Shown here: piece by piece, positions 41,204-54,553 of the stretch
Layout: each line of letters begins with the position of its first letter
Numbering within the stretch: the first letter of the stretch is position 1
DNA from: Nitrospirota bacterium
GTDB taxonomy: Bacteria; Nitrospirota; UBA9217
DNA length: 64,000 bases
NCBI GenBank assembly: GCA_963749655.1
Contig: CAVVOB010000038.1
Coordinates: forward strand, 96,001-160,000
Reading direction: 5' to 3'
The notes under the pieces: generated by a model
What the model saw: only the letters and a program-made list of their open reading frames with translations
The model's database searches: none
What the model was told of the DNA's origin: nothing
Program-made: the position numbers and the translations under genes

Positions 41204-41262
41204 TGATATCACGCGGCTGACGCGCCGCTTTTGGCGCGTCGCAGTCGAGCGCCTGGTTGGAA
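41204..41262 (-). other. attC site with a non-canonical GAT core at R'
   Basis: Same repeat family as 42273, 44955 and 52488 (CTGACGCGCC..GGCGCGTCGCAGTCGAG); ATC stands where AAC is expected. Confidence 0.75.
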
Positions 41263-41285: not shown

Positions 41286-41618
41286 TTAGACGTGAGCTAA
41301 GGCAGGTAATCTTTTTATCTTCTTTATCTCTTTTGCAGTTGATGAGTGGGTCACATGATATAAATCCCACGCTAACTGTAAATTAAGCCAAAACTGCGCC
41401 TCCATGCCGAATAGCTTCTCCAGACGAAGTGCTGTGTCAGGGGTAATCCCCCGCTTCGCATGAATCAGTTCATTAACGCGAGGGTATGAAACTCCGAGCT
41501 TCTCCGCCAACTCGCTCTGTGTTATTTTCAGAGGTTTGAGAAACTCCTCCAACAGCATTTCGCCGGGATGCGTCGGCGGACCATATTTAGGTATGCGTAC
41601 CATCTTCTTCTCCTTCAC
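41286..41618 (-). CDS. higA: HigA-family antitoxin
   Basis: PTHPGEMLLEEFLKPL, HTH, ITPDTALRL, FWLNLQ. Confidence 0.93.
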   Translation of the reverse strand: MKEKKMVRIPKYGPPTHPGEMLLEEFLKPLKITQSELAEKLGVSYPRVNELIHAKRGITPDTALRLEKLFGMEAQFWLNLQLAWDLYHVTHSSTAKEIKKIKRLPALAHV

Positions 41619-41621
41619 TCT

Positions 41622-41915
41622 TTAGTGGTAATCGGTAATTTCCACGTTTTCCACGCCATCATCCGTCCACACAAAACAAACGCGGAACTGATCGTTAATC
41701 CGTATGCTGTGCTGACCTTTCCGATCATGCTTAAGGGCTTCCAGTAAATTCCCCGGTGGAATTTTTAATGACTCCAAGGAAATGACCCCATTTAACTGGT
41801 CGAGCTTACGCTGTGCTATCCGCCAGATTTGATGCGGACAAGTTTCTCTGGCTTCTTTGGTGTTTCTTCTGTCAAAGATGTCCTCAGTGCCCTTGTCGCG
41901 AAACGATTTTATCAC
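41622..41915 (-). CDS. higB: HigB-family toxin (RelE superfamily)
   Basis: IKSFRDK.TE, PPGN.LEAL, GQHSIRINDQFR, VEITDYH; toxin-first gene order. Confidence 0.93.
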   Translation of the reverse strand: MIKSFRDKGTEDIFDRRNTKEARETCPHQIWRIAQRKLDQLNGVISLESLKIPPGNLLEALKHDRKGQHSIRINDQFRVCFVWTDDGVENVEITDYH

Positions 41916-42272: not shown

Positions 42273-42332
42273 ATACAACGCGCCGGTCACGCGCCGCCTT
42301 CTGGCGCGTCGCTGTGGACCGGCAGGTTAACC
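42273..42332 (-). other. attC site
   Basis: GGTTAAC (contains the upstream stop) ... GTTGTAT; GT-CAC-GCG/CGC-T-GTG-G-AC stem with extrahelical T and G. Confidence 0.9.
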
Positions 42333-43140: not shown

Positions 43141-43169
43141 GTTACCTTCCTATTTCTAAAGAAGTTAAC

Positions 43170-44958
43170 GAGTCTGTAGAAAAAGTCGATTTGAAAAGCA
43201 TCATTGATCCCGGGTAGCAAGTTTTTATCAGGGTGAGTTCTTGATTTGAGCTTTTGCGTGATTCAATCGGTCCTGGTCGATCTCGCTACTGCATTTTCTT
43301 TCTCTTTCTGCTTCCCGTTATCTCAACTTTCCGCGAACCCGAACCCGTATCGGTGCACTTTGAGCAGGTTGTGAACCACACAGTATAGCCGCCACTGGGT
43401 GCTTACCTTCTTTTTCCCTCTGAGACTGAAGCGGTCGAGACCGAGACTCGATCGGATGTCAGCAAATACCGGTTCGACCGTCGCCATCCTTCGTCCGTAG
43501 ATCAACTTGCCGGCCACCGAGTCTATCTTCTCTCGCATCTTCTGCGTGAAGGTCTTTTCTTGTTTGTTGGTCCTGCCTGTGAAATGGGAGAACTGGCGCG
43601 TTTCGGTCACCTCGGGGTTCTTCAGGCACTGCGCGCGCTGCGTGCACGGGATACAGTCTCGTTTTGTTCCGTGATACTTGATCGCATGGAGTCCATGATG
43701 ATTCGCGTTGCCGCATTTGTACATCCGTTTCCCGGCCGGGCAGGTGCAGAAGCTTTTATCCGGGCTCACCGTGAAGTCTCTCGGCTGGAAGACGATCGGC
43801 CGGTCGAATTTCTTTGCGATCTCTTTATTGAACCTCTCCTTATGCCTGTCGGCCGTAGCATATCGGGGATCGCGATGACGGAACTTGTTATCCGCGATGT
43901 ATGCGTCGATGCCTTCTTCGATTACCATCTGCACGTTCATTGCGGAATGAAAACCGGCATCGGTCGTCAGTTGGGTCTTTTTGAAGATGTCCTCTTCTTT
44001 TCCGATTGTCTTGAAGTTTCCCCGGGTCCCTTCGACCATGGGTTTAAGTATTGCAGTCTCGGAGTCTCCGGTCGTATCGGCATGGACAACTACCTTGTGT
44101 TTGCTGTCCACCATGGCTACACCGTTGTAACCCTGGACTACTCCGTGCGAAGTCATCATATTCGCGCTTTCGTTGTCGGTTATGTTGCTCTTCCTCGGCC
44201 CCTTGCTGCCGGGCTTGTCGTCGTTATCGTTCATGAAGTCTTTTATCTTTTTGATCTTCGCCTTGAGGGTGGCTATATACTGCTCTTCCTTCTCGATTAC
44301 CGCGTGGTCGGTCTCGGTTTTGTCCCGTTCCTTATGCTGAGCGATCATTGCCTTGATCGCCTTCTCCATCTTTTCTTTTTTACGTCGAAGATCCTTTTTA
44401 GTTCCGCTCCATTCCTTTGAAGCGTTCGAAGGGAGCTTGCAGCCATCGATAGCGAACATCTCTTTGCCGATCAGGCCCATCCGGTCGCAGATAAAGAGTA
44501 CTTCAAGGAAGAGCTTCACCGTCTCCTGGTCGTTCGATGAGATGAAATCGGCGATCGTGGTGAAGTGCGGCCGGGTGTCTGCTGAGAGGGCCATAAACAC
44601 GACGTTCTCGTTGCAGCATTCGGCGATCTTCCGACTGGAGGTGATTCCTTTGGAATAGGCGTAAAGGACGATCTTGAGCATAATCCTTGGATCGTAAGCC
44701 GGTGCGCCAGTTTCGTCGTTCTTATAGCGGAGATCGAAGGCGGAAAGGTCGATTTCATTGTCGATAAGATAGTGGAGCGTATGTTCAAAAGTGCCGGGAA
44801 GGATCTGTTTGTCGAAGCTGAGCGGGATAAATTTGCCTTGGGAATAGTCGTACTCTTTGTACTTCGCCATACGCCTCCCGTGGGTGAGGGGTTTTTGTTC
44901 TTCAGAAGTGCGTTTAGATGGCGCCAGTATAGCATAAAATGACTTTTTCTACACCTTC
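43170..44958 (-). mobile_element. IS1182-family insertion sequence, copy 1 (1,789 bp)
   Basis: Imperfect 18-bp IRs GAGTCTGTAGAAAAAGTC / GACTTTTTCTACACCTTC; AAC on both flanks. Confidence 0.93.
43323..44870 (-). CDS. IS1182-family DDE transposase
   Basis: GAPAYDPRIMLK..YAY..GITSSRKI (DUF772-like), IDG.K, TD.ES, GYN, DAGF, VEPVF, HNL. Confidence 0.92.
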   Translation of the reverse strand: MAKYKEYDYSQGKFIPLSFDKQILPGTFEHTLHYLIDNEIDLSAFDLRYKNDETGAPAYDPRIMLKIVLYAYSKGITSSRKIAECCNENVVFMALSADTRPHFTTIADFISSNDQETVKLFLEVLFICDRMGLIGKEMFAIDGCKLPSNASKEWSGTKKDLRRKKEKMEKAIKAMIAQHKERDKTETDHAVIEKEEQYIATLKAKIKKIKDFMNDNDDKPGSKGPRKSNITDNESANMMTSHGVVQGYNGVAMVDSKHKVVVHADTTGDSETAILKPMVEGTRGNFKTIGKEEDIFKKTQLTTDAGFHSAMNVQMVIEEGIDAYIADNKFRHRDPRYATADRHKERFNKEIAKKFDRPIVFQPRDFTVSPDKSFCTCPAGKRMYKCGNANHHGLHAIKYHGTKRDCIPCTQRAQCLKNPEVTETRQFSHFTGRTNKQEKTFTQKMREKIDSVAGKLIYGRRMATVEPVFADIRSSLGLDRFSLRGKKKVSTQWRLYCVVHNLLKVHRYGFGFAES

Positions 44959-45013
44959 AACACGGCGCTGACGCGCCGACGTTGGCGCGTCGCTGTCGAG
45001 CGCCAGGTTGGTA
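44955..45013 (-). other. attC site regenerated at the IS end
   Basis: TACCAAC ... GTT|GAAG; CT-GAC-GCG/CGC-T-GTC-G-AG stem. Confidence 0.9.
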
Positions 45014-45031
45014 CTTGCATCTCTCTTTTAT

Positions 45032-46012
45032 CTACGCATATCCGGCCCATGCCGAAAGGATTTTCCCTGCTCTCTGCTTGCTGAATCCGCATTCGACTGC
45101 CGTGTCTAGCGTAGTTCTTATATCTGCCTCGCTTGGCTTGAAATTCGGACCAAAAGACCTGCTTACGATTCCCATTGCTTTAATTGTTTCTAGGTCTTCT
45201 GAGAGAAGTGATGCAGCGACTTCGCTTTCTATTATAGTTTTGTGCTTGCCGCCTGACTGTGCAAAAAATGGTATCCGTGCCATCAATGATAAACTACGCG
45301 CTTGTTCAAGTTGTTCAGCACCATCTGGCATTGCGTCGTTCCTAGACTTAATCAATGATGTTTCTAAGGTCTGTAGAATGTCCTGCTCTCGCTCAAGGTT
45401 TCCACCAACTGCGGCGGCTTCTTCAAGCATGTCTTGCGTCTCCTGCAATAGTGATAAAGCGTTAGCCACAGAACTATGCTGACTCATCGCTCGCATTTTA
45501 TCGCTGCAAAAGGATTCGAACTTCTTCTTGTACTGCTTCACGAACACAAGGTCCATTTCCTGTGCATCGAGGATTTCTTGAATTGTAATAATCCTGCGGT
45601 CAGCAGGAAAAAGCAGGTTCCCGTCTCTGCGCTGAAGTTGCCTTTCGTAGCAACCTGGGGCGTCGCTCCATACCTTTTCTTCTTCGGCCCAAGCACGTGA
45701 AAGCCTGTGCGCCGTGTTGACCGGCATATTTTCACCGTATTTTTCGATAAGTTCCTGCATCGTTTGTTCGATATATGCGCGTTCTTCCGGCGACGCGTCT
45801 GCTCGCTTTACACAAATCGAATTTACTGATACAGTTTTTCCTTCGAGGGCACCTTTATCAACAACATCGTGCATTTGTCGAGAAATTTGTTTGCGCTCTT
45901 TTTCTACAAGTATTTTTACATGCTCTGCCTGCTCTTGCGTCAATGTCACGCCGGTATCGCGTTTCGAGAATAGATTGATCGCCGCTTTTATTAAGAAGCT
46001 ACCAATTCCCAT
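45032..46012 (-). CDS. Cassette gene: hypothetical protein
   Basis: 326-aa ORF with RBS GAGGAG, bounded by attC sites. Confidence 0.8.
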   Translation of the reverse strand: MGIGSFLIKAAINLFSKRDTGVTLTQEQAEHVKILVEKERKQISRQMHDVVDKGALEGKTVSVNSICVKRADASPEERAYIEQTMQELIEKYGENMPVNTAHRLSRAWAEEEKVWSDAPGCYERQLQRRDGNLLFPADRRIITIQEILDAQEMDLVFVKQYKKKFESFCSDKMRAMSQHSSVANALSLLQETQDMLEEAAAVGGNLEREQDILQTLETSLIKSRNDAMPDGAEQLEQARSLSLMARIPFFAQSGGKHKTIIESEVAASLLSEDLETIKAMGIVSRSFGPNFKPSEADIRTTLDTAVECGFSKQRAGKILSAWAGYA

Positions 46013-46026
46013 GTCATATCTCCTCA

Positions 46027-46090
46027 GACTAATGCGGCGGTAAGTCGCGGTCCCCGTAGGGGCCCGTCGATCTTGACTGCCTTGATCTCT
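46027..46090 (-). other. attC-like site with non-canonical R boxes (AGAGATC ... ATTAGTC)
   Basis: GT-AAG-TCG-CGG / CCG-T-CGA-T-CTT-G-AC stem with extrahelical G and T and 6-nt spacers. Confidence 0.8.
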
Positions 46091-46165
46091 CCGCGCTTTT
46101 TGCGGAGAAGGCAGTTCCGCGACTTACCGCCGCAATCTTTCCGCGATTGCGAAGCGCGGAGAGAT
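46033..46165 (-). mobile_element. Gene-less 133-bp self-complementary mini-cassette
   Basis: Lies between two attC hairpins; its ends are complementary over 15 bp; no credible ORF. Confidence 0.75.
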
Positions 46166-46217
46166 CGATTGGCATCACTAGCGGCTGTAAGCCGTCCGGT
46201 GGATGCCATGGTTATGC
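46160..46217 (-). other. attC site of the 669-aa cassette; R' reads GATCTCT
   Basis: R'' GCATAAC matches this cassette's start GTTATGT at 6/7; AT-CAC/GTG-G-AT and CGGC/GCCG stems. Confidence 0.8.
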
Positions 46218-46288
46218 AATTAGTTGGCTTCTTTACCAGTTGCAAAGCAATAGATGCCCCCTTGTTTCATAGCAAGCATAGATTTTCT

Positions 46289-48298
46289 TTAAAGTGTCTT
46301 CAGTTTATCAATGACAGTCGGATTTCGGCTAAGTTGCTCAATTGTTTTTTGCACAAATGTATTTAGTATCACGCCGTCGTACTTCCGCTGTTCCGCTTCC
46401 TTAACTTCATGTGCCGCTCTGAGAATTTCACCGGACTTAGCTTTCTTATTGACATGAATCATCCTATCTTGATCCGCTTGCTTCAAAATTTCTGACTGTA
46501 TCTTCCAAATCTCTTTCCAGATATCTGACTTGCTCCATAACGCCTCAAGCGTTTGATCAATTAAGCTCTGGAGTCGTCGATGGGCACGCAATTTCTTCAG
46601 CAACACTACGGGATCGATCGGTTTTGGCTGCGGTAGAGGTGGGAAGGGTGTATTACCTGTACCTGGGATTTGAGGCAACTCCACGGTGATATCTATGAGA
46701 CCCCGTTCGATCAAATCGTGTAAGGCTCTCTCAAGTCTCGCTACCTTAGCAGCATCGAAAGCGTAGATTGTAACGGCCGTTTCGACATAGATTATCGATT
46801 TTCCATAGAAAAAGAACTGACCTTTTGCGACTGTGTTGAATTTATCTACAGATTGAAAATTGAACTCTACTGCTGTATCATTGTCATAGTCAAAAGGGTT
46901 ATTTGTGAATCCATCGAATATTTTCTGACCATCAACAGATAGCGTCGATAAGGTAATATTTTGTGCTGTTGTTTGCCCATGCTTGATTATCACAACGCCC
47001 GATGTTCTAGTTGGGGGGGCGAGATTTCTCTCAACGAATACAGCAAAAATTGGGGATGTAATGTTACCGAGACGGTATGAATAGGTCACTTCAACGTAAG
47101 CCGTGCTTAAGTCGTCATGTCCCCTTCGAACATCAATAGGATTATTTACGATTCTGATCCAACGAAACGGAGCGTCAAGTTGTAGAATTGCGGCTGTTGT
47201 TGGATTCTGGTCTTTAATGAACAGATCAGCATCAGTGATGCCATCATAACCTACTGGTGGACCACCACCTGTCTTATGAACATATGGGTAACAGTCAATA
47301 GCTGGTACTGCATCAACATTAGTCGACCGACAATAGTTATCGTCATCCAGCAATCGCACGGTAACCGTGGAGAGAGCTCGGGGCAGTTTGAGATTGACGG
47401 TGGTACTTCCCGTTCTACTAGAGCACTGTTTGTTGTCTCTGCCCTTGGGAGATAATTCTGACTTAGCCTGACCGGGTCCCTTGTTGTAATTCCAGTTACT
47501 ACCATCAACTTGGACGCAGAAGTAGGGGATGAAACAGCATTGCCAGGAAAAATCCAGATCATAGTCGGCCACGGTTGCTGAACTAATCCCGGTTTGTTCG
47601 CACTTGTTAATTTTCACCAGTGTGCCGTCTTGAAAAGCATAACTTCTGTCCTTGTCGTCGAGAAAGAAGCCATGGTATTCGTCTCCCCTATTGTGTCTAA
47701 GCCGAATATTACTTTGATCACCATTTAAATAGAATGTAAGACATACATCGTCATCATTAAAGTAAATTGGATCATAAATGAAGATAGTTACGTGGGTATC
47801 CGCGCCGCTCGGTGCTCCCTCCCCTTGGATTATTGACCTCTCCTCATATGCATATGCGACAACCCGATGGCTGTCTTCAAGGTGCTTAAGATTGACATCA
47901 TTGGATGACGCAATGAGTGTAAGTGTTACTGGCTTAGATTTATCGAGCAGATCCTTAACGCTTGGCCATTCCTGTTGTGTCATGTGCCCTTGGCTATGCT
48001 TGCGATTCCAATGACCTAAATCTGGACTTTCTTGCCATCGATAGATTTTCCAAAGGGTACTTGCAGGTAAGGAATTTACCTGCGTATCCCATATCTCATT
48101 ATAAAGGGGGTCTCCCTCCGGAGGTTGTGGTATGTTTCTATCGATAGGGATTGCATTATAGAATCTCTGCAGTGCTTTCCAGCACATTCCTCCACAAAAT
48201 CCCATATCTAAGGTGACAGTATCAAAGACAAATGATTTTCTCCAAGAATTACCAAAAGGCCAGCCATGAATTGATGGTCTAAAGTATGTCGTTATCAT
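46289..48298 (-). CDS. Cassette gene: 669-aa protein with a putative N-terminal papain-like Cys-His-Asp domain
   Basis: GFCGGM, SHRVVAY, IFIYDP in the usual order; RBS AGGAGG. Confidence 0.7.
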   Translation of the reverse strand: MITTYFRPSIHGWPFGNSWRKSFVFDTVTLDMGFCGGMCWKALQRFYNAIPIDRNIPQPPEGDPLYNEIWDTQVNSLPASTLWKIYRWQESPDLGHWNRKHSQGHMTQQEWPSVKDLLDKSKPVTLTLIASSNDVNLKHLEDSHRVVAYAYEERSIIQGEGAPSGADTHVTIFIYDPIYFNDDDVCLTFYLNGDQSNIRLRHNRGDEYHGFFLDDKDRSYAFQDGTLVKINKCEQTGISSATVADYDLDFSWQCCFIPYFCVQVDGSNWNYNKGPGQAKSELSPKGRDNKQCSSRTGSTTVNLKLPRALSTVTVRLLDDDNYCRSTNVDAVPAIDCYPYVHKTGGGPPVGYDGITDADLFIKDQNPTTAAILQLDAPFRWIRIVNNPIDVRRGHDDLSTAYVEVTYSYRLGNITSPIFAVFVERNLAPPTRTSGVVIIKHGQTTAQNITLSTLSVDGQKIFDGFTNNPFDYDNDTAVEFNFQSVDKFNTVAKGQFFFYGKSIIYVETAVTIYAFDAAKVARLERALHDLIERGLIDITVELPQIPGTGNTPFPPLPQPKPIDPVVLLKKLRAHRRLQSLIDQTLEALWSKSDIWKEIWKIQSEILKQADQDRMIHVNKKAKSGEILRAAHEVKEAEQRKYDGVILNTFVQKTIEQLSRNPTVIDKLKTL

Positions 48299-48890: not shown

Positions 48891-48910
48891 TGTATTTTCT
48901 CCAGACTAAC

Positions 48911-50699
48911 GAGTCTGTAGAAAAAGTCGATTTGAAAAGCATCATTGATCCCGGGTAGCAAGTTTTTATCAGGGTGAGTTCTTGATTTGAGCTTTTGCGT
49001 GATTCAATCGGTCCTGGTCGATCTCGCTACTGCATTTTCTTTCTCTTTCTGCTTCCCGTTATCTCAACTTTCCGCGAACCCGAACCCGTATCGGTGCACT
49101 TTGAGCAGGTTGTGAACCACACAGTATAGCCGCCACTGGGTGCTTACCTTCTTTTTCCCTCTGAGACTGAAGCGGTCGAGACCGAGACTCGATCGGATGT
49201 CAGCAAATACCGGTTCGACCGTCGCCATCCTTCGTCCGTAGATCAACTTGCCGGCCACCGAGTCTATCTTCTCTCGCATCTTCTGCGTGAAGGTCTTTTC
49301 TTGTTTGTTGGTCCTGCCTGTGAAATGGGAGAACTGGCGCGTTTCGGTCACCTCGGGGTTCTTCAGGCACTGCGCGCGCTGCGTGCACGGGATACAGTCT
49401 CGTTTTGTTCCGTGATACTTGATCGCATGGAGTCCATGATGATTCGCGTTGCCGCATTTGTACATCCGTTTCCCGGCCGGGCAGGTGCAGAAGCTTTTAT
49501 CCGGGCTCACCGTGAAGTCTCTCGGCTGGAAGACGATCGGCCGGTCGAATTTCTTTGCGATCTCTTTATTGAACCTCTCCTTATGCCTGTCGGCCGTAGC
49601 ATATCGGGGATCGCGATGACGGAACTTGTTATCCGCGATGTATGCGTCGATGCCTTCTTCGATTACCATCTGCACGTTCATTGCGGAATGAAAACCGGCA
49701 TCGGTCGTCAGTTGGGTCTTTTTGAAGATGTCCTCTTCTTTTCCGATTATCTTGAAGTTTTCCCGGGTCCCTTCGACCATGGGTTTAAGTATTGCAGTCT
49801 CGGAGTCTCCGGTCGCATCGGCATGGACAACTACCTGGTGTTTGCTGTCCACCATGGCTACACCGTTGTAACCCTGGACTACTCCGTGCGAAGTCATCAT
49901 ATTCGCGCTTTCGTTGTCGGTTATGTTGCTCTTCCTCGGCCCCTTGCTGCCGGGCTTGTCGTCGTTATCGTTCATGAAGTCTTTTATCTTTTTGATCTTC
50001 GCCTTGAGGGTGGCTATATACTGCTCTTCCTTCTCGATTACCGCGTGGTCGGTCTCGGTTTTGTCCCGTTCCTTATGCTGAGCGATCATTGCCTTGATCG
50101 CCTTCTCCATCTTTTCTTTCTTACGTCGAAGATCCTTTTTAGTTCCGCTCCATTCCTTTGAAGCGTTCGAAGGGAGCTTGCAGCCGTCGATAGCGAACAT
50201 CTCTTTGCCGATCAGGCCCATCCGGTCGCAGATAAAGAGTACTTCAAGGAAGAGCTTCACCGTCTCCTGGTCGTTCGATGAGATGAAATCGGCGATCGTG
50301 GTGAAGTGCGGCCGGGTGTCGGCGGAGAGGGCCATGAAGATGACATTCTCATTGCAACAGTCGGCGATCTTCCGGCTGGAGGTGATCCCTTTGGAGTAGG
50401 CATACAGGACGATCTTGAGCATGATCCGGGGATCGTAGGCCGGAGCGCCGGTTTCGTCGTTCCTGTACCGGAGGTCGAATGTCGAAAGGTCGAGATCGTT
50501 GTCGATCAGATAGTGGAGGGTGTGCTCGAAGGTGCCGGGGAGGATCTGTTTGTCGAAGCTGAGCGGGATGAACTTGCCTTGGGAATAGTCGTACTCTTTG
50601 TACTTCGCCATACGCCTCCCGTAGGTGAGGGGTTTTGATGTATCAGAAGTGCGTTTCGATGGCGTCAGTATAGCACAAAATGACTTTTCCTACACCTTC
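48911..50699 (-). mobile_element. IS1182-family insertion sequence, copy 2 (1,789 bp)
   Basis: Same IRs; AAC at 48908-48910 and 50700-50702. Confidence 0.93.
49064..50611 (-). CDS. IS1182-family DDE transposase
   Basis: 515 aa, near-identical to copy 1. Confidence 0.92.
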   Translation of the reverse strand: MAKYKEYDYSQGKFIPLSFDKQILPGTFEHTLHYLIDNDLDLSTFDLRYRNDETGAPAYDPRIMLKIVLYAYSKGITSSRKIADCCNENVIFMALSADTRPHFTTIADFISSNDQETVKLFLEVLFICDRMGLIGKEMFAIDGCKLPSNASKEWSGTKKDLRRKKEKMEKAIKAMIAQHKERDKTETDHAVIEKEEQYIATLKAKIKKIKDFMNDNDDKPGSKGPRKSNITDNESANMMTSHGVVQGYNGVAMVDSKHQVVVHADATGDSETAILKPMVEGTRENFKIIGKEEDIFKKTQLTTDAGFHSAMNVQMVIEEGIDAYIADNKFRHRDPRYATADRHKERFNKEIAKKFDRPIVFQPRDFTVSPDKSFCTCPAGKRMYKCGNANHHGLHAIKYHGTKRDCIPCTQRAQCLKNPEVTETRQFSHFTGRTNKQEKTFTQKMREKIDSVAGKLIYGRRMATVEPVFADIRSSLGLDRFSLRGKKKVSTQWRLYCVVHNLLKVHRYGFGFAES

Positions 50700-50702
50700 A
50701 AC

Positions 50703-52491
50703 GAGTCTGTAGAAAAAGTCGATTTGAAAAGCATCATTGATCCCGGGTAGCAAGTTTTTATCAGGGTGAGTTCTTGATTTGAGCTTTTGCGTGATTCAAT
50801 CGGTCCTGGTCGATCTCGCTACTGCATTTTCTTTCTCTTTCTGCTTCCCGTTATCTCAACTTTCCGCGAACCCGAACCCGTATCGGTGCACTTTGAGCAG
50901 GTTGTGAACCACACAGTATAGCCGCCACTGGGTGCTTACCTTCTTTTTCCCTCTGAGACTGAAGCGGTCGAGACCGAGACTCGATCGGATGTCAGCAAAT
51001 ACCGGTTCGACCGTCGCCATCCTTCGTCCGTAGATCAACTTGCCGGCCACCGAGTCTATCTTCTCTCGCATCTTCTGCGTGAAGGTCTTTTCTTGTTTGT
51101 TGGTCCTGCCTGTGAAATGGGAGAACTGGCGCGTTTCGGTCACCTCGGGGTTCTTCAGGCACTGCGCGCGCTGCGTGCACGGGATACAGTCTCGTTTTGT
51201 TCCGTGATACTTGATCGCATGGAGTCCATGATGATTCGCGTTGCCGCATTTGTACATCCGTTTCCCGGCCGGGCAGGTGCAGAAGCTTTTATCCGGGCTC
51301 ACCGTGAAGTCTCTCGGCTGGAAGACGATCGGCCGGTCGAATTTCTTTGCGATCTCTTTATTGAACCTCTCCTTATGCCTGTCGGCCGTAGCATATCGGG
51401 GATCGCGATGACGGAACTTGTTATCCGCGATGTATGCGTCGATGCCTTCTTCGATTACCATCTGCACGTTCATTGCGGAATGAAAACCGGCATCGGTCGT
51501 CAGTTGGGTCTTTTTGAAGATGTCCTCTTCTTTTCCGATTATCTTGAAGTTTTCCCGGGTCCCTTCGACCATGGGTTTAAGTATTGCAGTCTCGGAGTCT
51601 CCGGTCGCATCGGCATGGACAACTACCTGGTGTTTGCTGTCCACCATGGCTACACCGTTGTAACCCTGGACTACTCCGTGCGAAGTCATCATATTCGCGC
51701 TTTCGTTGTCGGTTATGTTGCTCTTCCTCGGCCCCTTGCTGCCGGGCTTGTCGTCGTTATCGTTCATGAAGTCTTTTATCTTTTTGATCTTCGCCTTGAG
51801 GGTGGCTATATACTGCTCTTCCTTCTCGATTACCGCGTGGTCGGTCTCGGTTTTGTCCCGTTCCTTATGCTGAGCGATCATTGCCTTGATCGCCTTCTCC
51901 ATCTTTTCTTTCTTACGTCGAAGATCCTTTTTAGTTCCGCTCCATTCCTTTGAAGCGTTCGAAGGGAGCTTGCAGCCGTCGATAGCGAACATCTCTTTGC
52001 CGATCAGGCCCATCCGGTCGCAGATAAAGAGTACTTCAAGGAAGAGCTTCACCGTCTCCTGGTCGTTCGATGAGATGAAATCGGCGATCGTGGTGAAGTG
52101 CGGCCGGGTGTCGGCGGAGAGGGCCATGAAGATGACATTCTCATTGCAACAGTCGGCGATCTTCCGGCTGGAGGTGATCCCTTTGGAGTAGGCATACAGG
52201 ACGATCTTGAGCATGATCCGGGGATCGTAGGCCGGAGCGCCGGTTTCGTCGTTCCTGTACCGGAGGTCGAATGTCGAAAGGTCGAGATCGTTGTCGATCA
52301 GATAGTGGAGGGTGTGCTCGAAGGTGCCGGGGAGGATCTGTTTGTCGAAGCTGAGCGGGATGAACTTGCCTTGGGAATAGTCGTACTCTTTGTACTTCGC
52401 CATACGCCTCCCGTAGGTGAGGGGTTTTGATGTATCAGAAGTGCGTTTCGATGGCGTCAGTATAGCACAAAATGACTTTTCCTACACCTTC
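50703..52491 (-). mobile_element. IS1182-family insertion sequence, copy 3 (1,789 bp), tandem with copy 2
   Basis: Same IRs; AAC at 50700-50702 and 52492-52494. Confidence 0.9.
50856..52403 (-). CDS. IS1182-family DDE transposase
   Basis: Protein identical to copy 2. Confidence 0.92.
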   Translation of the reverse strand: MAKYKEYDYSQGKFIPLSFDKQILPGTFEHTLHYLIDNDLDLSTFDLRYRNDETGAPAYDPRIMLKIVLYAYSKGITSSRKIADCCNENVIFMALSADTRPHFTTIADFISSNDQETVKLFLEVLFICDRMGLIGKEMFAIDGCKLPSNASKEWSGTKKDLRRKKEKMEKAIKAMIAQHKERDKTETDHAVIEKEEQYIATLKAKIKKIKDFMNDNDDKPGSKGPRKSNITDNESANMMTSHGVVQGYNGVAMVDSKHQVVVHADATGDSETAILKPMVEGTRENFKIIGKEEDIFKKTQLTTDAGFHSAMNVQMVIEEGIDAYIADNKFRHRDPRYATADRHKERFNKEIAKKFDRPIVFQPRDFTVSPDKSFCTCPAGKRMYKCGNANHHGLHAIKYHGTKRDCIPCTQRAQCLKNPEVTETRQFSHFTGRTNKQEKTFTQKMREKIDSVAGKLIYGRRMATVEPVFADIRSSLGLDRFSLRGKKKVSTQWRLYCVVHNLLKVHRYGFGFAES

Positions 52492-52547
52492 AACGCGCGC
52501 CTGACGCGCCGCCGTGTGGCGCGTCGCTGTCGAGGCGCAGGTTGGTT
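52488..52547 (-). other. attC site of the first cassette, regenerated at the IS end
   Basis: AACCAAC ... GTT|GAAG; CT-GAC-GCG/CGC-T-GTC-G-AG. Confidence 0.9.
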
Positions 52548-53114: not shown

Positions 53115-54553
53115 ATGAAAAGCATACATCCGGAAATCCTCGCGCGTTTTGATAACATTCTGAAAATACGGCAACTTCCTTTTCCTGTGCGTCCCGATTA
53201 CCGGAAATGGCTTAGGTACTTTCTGGATTTTCAAGCCAAATATCCGCAGCCCGGGGAACGGTCGGATCAGGTCCGGCGTTTCTCTGAAAAACTCCGGTCA
53301 AAGGGGCAGACTGAAACGCAGGTACGGCAGGCGGCGGATGCCGTATCGCTTTTTTTCGCGTCTCAGCAAGAGGCGCCTGTCGCGCCTGCATCGACCCGAT
53401 CGGTGACTGTCCCTCATACTGTCGTTTCAATCGCCGCGGAACAATCGCGCACAGAAGGCCTCGTTGTGTCGTCTGGTGGGAGGGTGCCCGGTATGGTCTG
53501 CGACCCGCCCGGGTCGCCGGTTCCTGATGAACACATCATGCGTCGCAAGGGCCGGTTTGATGATTGGCGTTGTCTGAAAAAAACAGGGTACCCTGCCTGG
53601 GACGCAATCATCGCCTCTCTTGCCGATGAGATCAAAACGAGGCATTACTCCAGAAAAACGCTCCAACACTATGCAAACTGGACCAGAAAATTCCAGAGCT
53701 ATCTGTCGCATAAAGATCCGGCCCTGCTTTCGCCACAGGACGTGAAGTGTTACCTTACCTATCTTGCAGTTCAGTGCAAGGTGTCCTCGTCGACGCAGAA
53801 TCTGGCATTCAACGCATTGCTGTTCCTGTACCGGCATGTTCTGAAAAAGGATTTCGGAAATCACAAGGACATTCCCCGAGCAAAAAAGTCCACCTATGTT
53901 CCGGTAGTGCTCTCCCGCGATGAAGTCCAGGAGGTTCTTGCACGACTGGGACAGCCGTATCAACTTATCGCCAAGCTGCAGTACGGCTGCGGACTGCGTC
54001 GTTTTGAAGCGGTGAAGGTGCGCGTGAAGGACTTCAATTTCGATGCGGGCCTGCTCACGGTCAAGGGGAAAGGCGGCAAGAGCCGGGCAGTGCCGCTCCC
54101 GAACAGGATCTTGCCTGAATTGCTCGCCCAACTGGCATTTGTGAAAAAGGTGCATGCCGACGACCTGTGCTGCCGGTTACGCAGGGGTGTTTTTGGAAGA
54201 CCAATTGGAAAGGAAGTATCCGAACGCGCCCCAGGGAGTTTCAATGGCAATGGTTCTTCCCGCAGGAATCATTAACGGTCGTGGCATCGTCCGGGGAAAA
54301 GCGACGCTATCACGTACATGACTCGCGGTTTCAGGATGCGATGTATTTTGCTGTTAAAAGAGCCCAGCTCACCAAGCGCGTAACTACACATACGCTTCGG
54401 CACTCTTTCGCCACGCACCTCCTGCAGGCGAACTACGATATTCGCACGATCCAGGAAATGCTCGGCCACTCGGATGTCAGGACGACGATGATCTACACGC
54501 ATTGCGTTCCGAGCAGGACGGCGAAAGAGAGAAAGAGCCCGCTTGATTTCTGA
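53115..54553 (+). CDS. intI: Integron integrase with an N-terminal extension; two +1 frameshifts (about 54168 and 54229-54232)
   Basis: [35 protein letters not shown], IntI-specific [29 protein letters not shown] (third frame), [23 protein letters not shown]. Confidence 0.95.

Follow-up and report, generated by a model that had tools for sequence, protein, structure and literature searches.

Integron recombination sites are folded single strands, and the control of their folding decides the rate at which cassette arrays are reshuffled. In Vibrio, paralogous and lineage-restricted families of non-coding cassettes have been described and proposed to be selfish or regulatory (Boucher et al. 2006, PMC1382264), and the attC sites of V. 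cholerae (VCRs) have a most stable fold that is non-recombinogenic and lowers excision (PMC5371416). Here we describe a 133-nucleotide (nt) unit without an open reading frame (ORF) at 46033-46165, on the minus strand of a 64,000-nt stretch of a Nitrospirota contig (the window), where it stands as cassette c4 of about nine in an integron array. Its boundaries recur in relatives, it belongs to a family whose members have moved between contexts, and both of its alternative folds are conserved. We consider it likely that the unit is a non-coding cassette consisting of an attC site alone, a member of a lineage-restricted family of mini-cassettes with one-armed and two-armed forms, and that it has two competing folds.

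The Nitrospirota units resemble the Vibrio non-coding cassettes in having no ORF, a 3' attC and conservation over the full length, in recurring both within single genomes and across the genomes of one lineage while being unknown elsewhere, and in inviting the same two readings, selfish or useful to the integron. They differ in being reduced to the recombination site (79-140 nt) with a duplicated half-site, a comparison that leaves the structure and size of the Vibrio cassettes aside. An attC without an ORF, likewise in first position, has been reported as a single anecdotal case that its authors read as non-functional (PMC3146285), whereas the present units form a conserved multi-copy family, one- and two-armed. 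As in VCR126 of V. cholerae, a site of low pfold (PMC5371416), the most stable single-strand fold is not recombinogenic and is thought to lower excision; in contrast to VCR126, the cassette here contains its own competitor, a dedicated arm of 32 nt that covaries; the bias is 14-37 kcal/mol, and in relatives this arm can itself be the attC stem. ORF-less cassettes bearing promoters or small RNAs (Treponema in the oral metagenome, Xanthomonas; PMC8876359) are also non-coding, lie in arrays and could influence their neighbours, but the present unit has no promoter-like site, and what is conserved in it belongs to a DNA recombination site. Searches of the literature outside supplements turned up neither an attC-only family that is conserved and has a second arm nor a nested double attC or an A|TT family; cassette tables in supplements (e.g. 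those of PMC1382264 and PMC3146285) may list similar short cassettes.

The unit lies in a 276-nt spacer (46013-46288) flanked by two minus-strand genes. Read along its top strand from 46165 to 46033, it comprises segment a, a loop, arm 2 (a' then b), the hairpin c-d, arm 1, a TAC loop and a shared 3' arm (L', spacer and final A). The parts of the unit and the sites that bound it are as follows.

46160-46217, minus strand: attC of the upstream cassette c3 (669-aa ORF), with R'' GCATAAC (46217 to 46211), a bulged hairpin (46209-46170) and a hybrid R' G|ATCTCT (46166 to 46160).
46152-46165, minus strand: segment a, the first 14 nt of the unit (ATCTCTCCGCGCTT, top strand), comprising the remainder of R' and an extension; it pairs with a' (46135-46148) or with a'' (46084-46098).
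46117-46148, minus strand: arm 2 (the 'anti-attC'), formed by a' (46135-46148) and b (46117-46134), a bulge-free half-site resembling R''-L''.
46076-46115, minus strand: inner hairpin c-d/d'-c', in which 46108-46115 pairs with 46076-46083 and 46101-46106 with 46088-46093.
46034-46098, minus strand: arm 1 and the shared 3' arm, shaped like a canonical attC, with R'' AGAGATC (46090 to 46084), pairing extended to 46098, a 3-nt loop (46055-46057) and a spacer (46034-46039).
46027-46033, minus strand: 3' crossover box A|TTAGTC, in which the A at 46033 is the last base of the unit; cassette c5 runs from 46032 onward.

An earlier note on this DNA, made from the window alone, had listed inverted repeats here, and these were recovered at the same positions: 46033-46050 pairs with 46117-46134 at 18/18 positions, 46135-46148 with 46152-46165 at 12/14, and 46084-46098 with 46152-46166 at 15/15. 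The pairing of 46076-46083 with 46108-46115 is complete (8/8), and the CTCCGC/GCGGAG and CCCC/GGGG stems are seen in the minimum-energy folds. Segment a thus has a choice of partners, pairing with a'' at 12/12 positions and with a' at 10/12. Arms 1 and 2 form a 50-nt direct repeat. No notable ORF was found in 46033-46165; the overlapping frames of 49 and 73 amino acids (aa) both extend into the neighbouring sites.

Arm 1 consists of R'' AGAGATC, a spacer of six unpaired nt and L'', which contains three extra bases. The pairing of R'' with G|ATCTCT is perfect, a compensated ATC/GAT standing in place of the usual AAC/GTT; relatives read AAC where the window has ATC. The GAT start of the window unit has its counterparts in R'', as ATC, and in arm 2, as T. 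Between the window and the copy L084 a change of cassette position 1 from T to A is accompanied by A to T in both arms, so that position 1 stays paired with both partners. All the features of an attC are present, namely an R-box pair, a central spacer left unpaired, an L stem bearing extrahelical bases, and a loop at the tip, and the R box departs from the consensus, RYYYAAC/GTTRRRY. Arm 1 with the 3' arm shows every structural feature of the canonical attC, including bottom-strand bulges T, T and G (PMC2727003, PMC5027507); in contrast to canonical sites, the R'' side is purine-rich, the site has a triplet of its own, ATT (5' GAT in the window), and a second arm competes.

Comparison among copies places both ends of the unit at the crossover position of the integrase, with non-canonical triplets. 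Ten loci aligned with 130-nt flanks are similar from just after the G of unrelated upstream sites to A|TT. The 44 copies with definable starts are preceded by G (38) or A (6) and begin with TTC in 42 cases and with ATC in two, the window and L126; their 5' triplets are GTT in 36, ATT in six and GAT in the window. Definable 3' ends (39 copies) read A|TT in 36 and G|TT in three. The crossovers of the window unit are G|AT, instead of the usual G|TT, on the 5' side and A|TT on the 3' side. This pattern supports the view that the unit is a real ORF-less integron cassette ending at IntI crossover points, and the boundaries fall on the very nucleotides that the earlier note had predicted. The two attC-shaped hairpins that it had placed around the unit are likewise borne out: the R'' of the site at 46160-46217 matches the start of its own cassette (GCATAAC with TTATGT), and 46027-46098 with 46152-46165 folds as an attC when arm 2 is blocked. 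The hairpin of c3 is present in both the DNA and the RNA folds of the spacer, and its core (46172-46213) was found with different flanks in three contigs of metagenome run X1; in one of these the stem lies 5 nt from a canonical AGCCAAC box, the geometry being that of the window. Downstream of the unit the array reads A|TTAGTCTGAGGAG..ATG of the 326-aa cassette c5, whose start, TTAGTCTG, is shared with cassette c2; homologues of the 326-aa cassette in metagenomes begin 25-30 nt ahead of the ATG.

These boundaries bear on the idea that the 669-aa cassette has a single long, branched attC made up of the whole of 46027-46217, with no separate cassette inside it. Branched terminal structures occur in some attC sites, and a weak pairing of 46217-46228 with 46025-46033 can be read by eye. 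The sequences adjoining these boxes do not pair, however; in relatives the 133-nt unit follows many unrelated attC sites, or attI directly without an upstream hairpin, and other metagenome contigs have this upstream hairpin type on its own. The comparative boundaries thus contradict a single long attC, and this reading, which is very improbable, was rejected.

By sequence, the unit is a member of a multi-copy, lineage-restricted family and not a singular event of its genome, where it is present once. A DNA search across the phylum (401 sampled genomes) gave matches in 47, of which 26 are among the 63 other members of the taxonomic family of the window; near-full-length matches have 71-91% identity. 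A covariance model (R1), built from 16 delimited units, matches at most 37 of the 64 genomes of that taxonomic family, with up to 11 copies in one genome, some of them adjacent; the window unit scores 128.3 bits over positions 1-133. Two-armed copies measure 126-140 nt and have the architecture seen in the window. The most conserved sequence block of the family is R''-spacer-L'' of arm 1, and a conserved 22-nt motif of this arm occurs in 27 species-collection contigs, of which 18 are titled Nitrospirota, Nitrospirae or Nitrospiraceae and two Dissulfurispiraceae. The absence of an ORF, full-length conservation, several copies per genome and confinement to one lineage, as in the paralogous non-coding families of the Vibrio type, are all found. 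Metagenome contigs of runs X3 and X5 carry the unit too; record 24 of X5 covers 46030-46167 with three differing letters and two gaps, and its flanks do not fit. Parts left uncovered in the metagenome contigs are no evidence of absence. Among public sequencing runs the best share of the sampled words of the window was 0.12. The exact 18-mer of the arm gave 23 single matches in the species-collection contigs, about the chance expectation, although two of them (L009 and L025) are real relatives, and a 31-nt IUPAC pattern of the tip hairpin gave no matches.

The recurrence of the unit also weighs on two readings in which IntI plays no part, an assembly artefact in the form of a fold-back chimera and a repeat resembling repetitive extragenic palindromic (REP) elements or miniature inverted-repeat transposable elements (MITEs) that is spread by a transposase. 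The draft genome comprises 39 contigs, with a completeness of 86.6% and a contamination of 5.8%, and an insertion sequence (IS) has hit the array three times. Against this, the same architecture is present in dozens of other assemblies as well as in the X3 and X5 contigs, which argues against the chimera that the earlier note had allowed for. The unit lacks the marks of REP or MITE repeats: it has no terminal inverted repeats and no target duplications, ends at the integrase cleavage position and is present once in its genome, and in other genomes the copies are close to intI. Either reading is hardly credible.

New cassettes enter an integron at attI, and two copies occupy this first position. 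They are L153 (genome G104) and L146, located 716 and 725 nt, respectively, from an uninterrupted intI; the gene in G104 scores 372 bits. In both, the junction reads ..ATAACTGG|TTC.., followed by a two-armed unit, which is complete in L146 and without a normal 3' end in L153. The distance from the attI crossover to the start of intI homology is 716 nt in the window, 716 nt in G104 and 725 nt in L146. Two-armed units are evidently insertable, since they stand in the first position beside attI. In genomes G002 and G023 copies lie 2-6 kb from intI. The sequences upstream of eight of 52 copies were classed as attI-like, a count that is indicative only, as the motif was derived from the same data. 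The 'self-locking' that the earlier note had proposed is unproven and cannot be absolute, since complete two-armed copies occupy many array positions, two of them as the first cassette at the attI of an intact intI.

L153 (4621-4746, equal to L103) lacks the last ~8 nt of the 3' arm and ends ..GCTTA|TT, as if it had recombined at a secondary site inside L'. Units also occur back to back (G002:C1:550115-550369, L104 and L099), with the junction ..GCA|TTCT... This is the sequence of the predicted circle junction, which therefore exists in linear DNA as well.

Arm 2 is the ungapped reverse complement of the circular junction of the unit (its last 18 and first 14 nt). The complementarity was found to be specific to the joining of 46165 to 46033, where it reaches 30/32, compared with 23-28 for equal shifts and 16-24 for unequal shifts of the junction, as the earlier note had expected of a true crossover point. 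The other eight cassettes of the array give 16-18/32; the bounds of c2, c6, c7 and c8 are off by 1-2 nt owing to IS duplications and anchor offsets, which leaves this ungapped control unaffected. The junction-spanning palindrome, presented earlier as an oddity, is present, but every R''-L'' arm of an attC spans the junction by definition, and what is odd is the second, bulge-free arm. Folding the unit as a circle gave a similarly divided answer: the palindrome is real, and closure adds just 0.3-1.6 kcal/mol, as the linear form already brings the two helices end to end. Circularisation as the stabiliser of the fold was rejected on account of this small gain.

As plus-strand DNA, the 276-nt spacer folds at -71.6 kcal/mol, compared with -39.4 +/- 3.7 kcal/mol for shuffled sequences (z -8.74), and none of 200 shuffles folds as stably. 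The free bottom strand of the unit is predicted to form a rod of -51.7 kcal/mol in which the inner hairpin c-d/d'-c' sequesters the R'' box and the spacer of arm 1; the pair probability of the R boxes in the free circle is 7e-11. When arm 2 (46117-46148) is blocked, 46027-46098 and 46152-46165 form an R-box helix and, beyond an unpaired spacer, an L stem in which three bases are bulged. This attC fold has an energy of -24.0 kcal/mol as a circle and of -27.9 kcal/mol in linear form. The rod is the minimum-energy fold in 16/16 delimited units and is favoured over the attC fold by 14-37 kcal/mol (median 31.5).

Both folds leave a trace in the alignment. RNAalifold returns 39 pairs, 24 of them with compensatory change; across 55 distinct copies the rod is 92.7% paired and shows compensatory change at 37 of 39 pairs, a pairing that none of 500 shuffles attains and that falls to 35-43% in slid controls. 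Helices a:a' and b:b' are 91-95% paired over the 55 copies, with compensation at 16/16 pairs of b:b', and rod helices 5 and 6 (the inner hairpin) are 92.6% and 84.5% paired, with compensatory change at every pair. The canonical attC fold, counted on an alignment fitted to the rod and not to the attC fold, is 81.5% paired overall (slid controls 37-48%); its L helix is 89.8% paired with compensatory change at 7/9 pairs, and its three bulges stand at fixed columns. In these models the family has two mutually exclusive folds, both conserved with covariation, and this part of the earlier note stands, with the addition that the rod is strongly favoured.

Covariation cannot separate DNA from RNA (PMC5737381), and the structure might work as RNA, as a cassette-borne small RNA, a processing or RNase III site or an insulator between cassette messages, IntI mobility being only the vehicle. 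ORF-less cassettes with regulatory RNAs or promoters are on record (PMC8876359), the spacer folds well as minus-strand RNA (z -7.15), and a perfect 18-bp helix with a 14-bp hairpin stacked on it would be a suitable substrate for a nuclease specific to double strands. The spacer matches no Rfam family, however; a scan of 44500-47500 with Rfam 15 gave only a chance-level mir-1991 match (E 0.36) at 45551-45615, inside the neighbouring gene and outside the unit. The unit has no promoter-like or terminator-like site in a scan whose promoter models cover sigma-70-type sites only, and the second conserved fold has exact attC anatomy. In independent folding of each strand, the bottom one, which is antisense to the cassette genes, is the more stable in 43/52 copies, by 2.3 kcal/mol on average, with 61 G-T pairs in the bottom strand compared with 18 in the top strand. 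This modelled strand bias fits single-stranded DNA of the recombining strand better than a sense RNA, and an RNA function is distinctly unlikely.

The relatives include simpler and larger forms. One-armed units of 79-80 nt consist of a, a loop, R'', spacer, L'', a loop, L' and A, and their bottom-strand circles fold as a plain dumbbell-shaped attC of -17 to -19 kcal/mol. One contig of X5, of depth 2, shows an extra 50-nt block. Slippage could thus add or remove arms, since the two arms are a 50-nt direct repeat, one-armed forms exist and an extra block is seen. The origin by fold-back synthesis suggested in the earlier note is unproven and is not needed, as these forms fit slippage. In L089, a cassette with a 188-aa ORF starts TTAGAC and ends GTCTAAC-AA-b ... 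arm 1 ... b'-GGA|TT, so that 2 nt separate R'' GTCTAAC from segment b and arm 1 lies nested within. In L128, attI precedes segment a, ~195 nt of cargo, an a' of perfect complementarity and b, in this order. In view of these two cases arm 2 can be a true outer R''-L'' arm with cargo between a and a', and by this comparison the window unit is an empty version of a nested double attC. The earlier term 'anti-attC' does not say all of arm 2, which in L089 and L128 carries its own R'' box matching the cassette start and acts as the outer attC stem, with the canonical attC nested in its terminal structure.

These arrangements are also what recommends the view that the rod itself is the working attC, arm 2 and the shared 3' arm being the true recombination stem, arm 1 a part of a branched terminal structure and the cargo of the window unit shrunk to a 3-nt loop. 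L089, with R'' 2 nt from b and arm 1 nested, and L128, with its cargo between a and its complementary a', both read naturally in this way, and the rod is the minimum-energy fold in all 16 units and covaries strongly. The outer stem, on the other hand, has no extrahelical bases and almost no unpaired spacer, features held necessary for strand choice (PMC5027507). The most conserved block is R''-spacer-L'' of arm 1, whose bulges are fixed while its helix covaries, and the one-armed forms retain arm 1 and not arm 2. The junction base T of arm 2 would moreover mismatch after exchange with a G|TT partner, to judge from PMC2811028. A working rod is possible but doubtful.

In the preferred reading of the unit as an attC-only cassette, IntI would move each unit by cutting after the base that precedes TT at both ends. 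The units always start TTC.. (ATC.. in the window) and nearly always end in A because the cut would fall before TT. Free of cargo, they probably persist as selfish passengers of IntI. In single-stranded DNA, arm 2 would win and the unit would zip into a Y-tipped rod, with the main helices abutting exactly at the cassette ends and the canonical attC hidden. The rod would then be the resting state, with a very low pfold in the sense of PMC5371416, and the inner attC may be reached kinetically, e.g. by extrusion from the 3-nt loop, or with the help of proteins. The two folds may serve as a switch for the frequency at which IntI is presented with the site, and arms may be gained and lost via slippage between the 50-nt direct repeats. 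As for the triplets, IntI1 tolerates a change of the second nucleotide of GTT in one partner (PMC2811028) and genomic insertion sites have the consensus GWT (10.1101/2022.09.11.507474), so the GAT start of the window unit should be tolerated.

The array belongs to a chromosomal integron, in a genome of Nitrospirota type. About nine cassettes on the minus strand extend leftward down to ~38.7 kb, as read directly from attI and the attC sites, and the unit sits in this array, which has intI and attI, in the orientation of the array. The attI site lies upstream of intI, with its crossover G at ~52894. A plain RYYYAAC...GTTRRRY scan of the window was uninformative, with equal counts on both strands. 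The integrase gene is the following.

53115-54275 and 54167-54553, plus strand: integron integrase gene in two frames, matching TIGR02249 with 183.3 bits (positions 2-188) and 135.5 bits (209-313).

The cut-off of TIGR02249 is 265 bits. The change of frame falls within 54171-54229, the 59 nt that separate the two profile matches. The second intI of the genome (contig C29, 9153-9992) has one in-frame TAA. These disruptions could be real decay or assembly errors.

Several points weigh against the attC-only cassette with two folds. Both intI copies look broken, so the window unit may be frozen, and excision and insertion of units by IntI are deduced from their many contexts and the first position at attI. 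The first nucleotide of the family triplet is A and that of attI is G, which is hard to reconcile with the 10^3-10^4-fold cost of a first-nucleotide mismatch between partners for IntI1 (PMC2811028). The R'' of arm 1 keeps a C, by which a bottom-strand G-T wobble would become G-C after exchange, and this may rescue the A|TT mismatch. The R boxes are purine-rich (RRRRAAC) instead of RYYYAAC, and R'' of the unit therefore hardly pairs with TTAGTC of the next cassette. In L089 and L128 it is the outer arm, and not the canonical one, that adjoins the R'' box matching the cassette start. The rod is so much more stable that formation of the canonical attC is hard to explain. The family copies are related, and their counts overstate independence; at least seven of the 52 distinct R1 copies examined, the lowest-scoring ones, are other attC types, which makes 37/64 an upper bound. 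The model-fitted alignment reverses the wobble count, with 95 top-strand G-T cells and 45 A-C cells; this alignment is biased toward top-strand pairs, and its count was set aside in favour of independent strand folding.

A bolder reading takes the units as free-living 'naked attC' elements, viroid-like single-stranded DNA rods of 80-140 nt that shuttle between arrays and genomes, carry a two-state switch, closed as the rod and open as the inner attC, read by IntI or host factors and act as seeds of new cassettes that take up cargo between the R-box strands, in the manner of L128 and L089. This is rather unlikely; if true, it would explain how genes acquire attC sites, which is largely unknown according to PMC5371416. 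The cargo seen between the R-box strands in relatives hints at a route by which genes could become cassettes. As a test object the attC-only family is natural and minimal: the cassette consists of a site and no more, with one or two arms, two conserved and exclusive folds and an unusual A|TT crossover. It allows one to ask whether a built-in competitor arm tunes excision and insertion, and whether a single-stranded circle of 80-140 nt is a real intermediate. It also indicates that cassettes which are non-coding and apparently selfish are present well beyond Vibrio. At such a unit, software for finding cassettes may call two sites, or none.

The genes on either side of the spacer are the following, and neither has a match in Pfam or NCBIfam.

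46289-48298, minus strand: 669-aa ORF of cassette c3, upstream in the array orientation.
45032-46012, minus strand: 326-aa ORF of cassette c5, downstream in the array orientation.

The 326-aa protein has ~30 homologues in metagenomes, several in cassette-like contexts with an attC on either side, and the closest are 83-88% identical. No relatives were found in the species-collection contigs or in the 63 other genomes of the taxonomic family of the window.

Toxin-antitoxin cassettes are common in sedentary chromosomal integrons, and a HigB-like toxin with a helix-turn-helix antitoxin (41286-41915) forms one cassette of this array. After this HigBA cassette (~41205-41215) the junction reads G|ATATCA, the second GAT of the array. 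The cassette start that follows mismatches the R'' of its own cassette, GCCCAAC, and the mismatch points to a deletion or to an event at a secondary site.

Four attC sites of the array belong to one sequence type (..GACGCGCC..GGCGCGTC..) and are located at 44961-45011, 52491-52543, 42276-42328 and 41210-41260. The GACGCGCC/GGCGCGTC type is abundant in runs X2, X3 and X5 and also precedes units of the mini-cassette family in other genomes. Three near-identical IS copies of ~1.79 kb are present at 43167-44958, 48908-50699 and 50700-52491, the latter two in tandem. Their transposase of 515 aa has DDE_Tnp_1_6, DUF772 and DDE_Tnp_1 domains. Every copy sits exactly at the GTT of an attC R' box, with GTT on its flanks, and the element looks like an attC-targeting IS of the DDE type.

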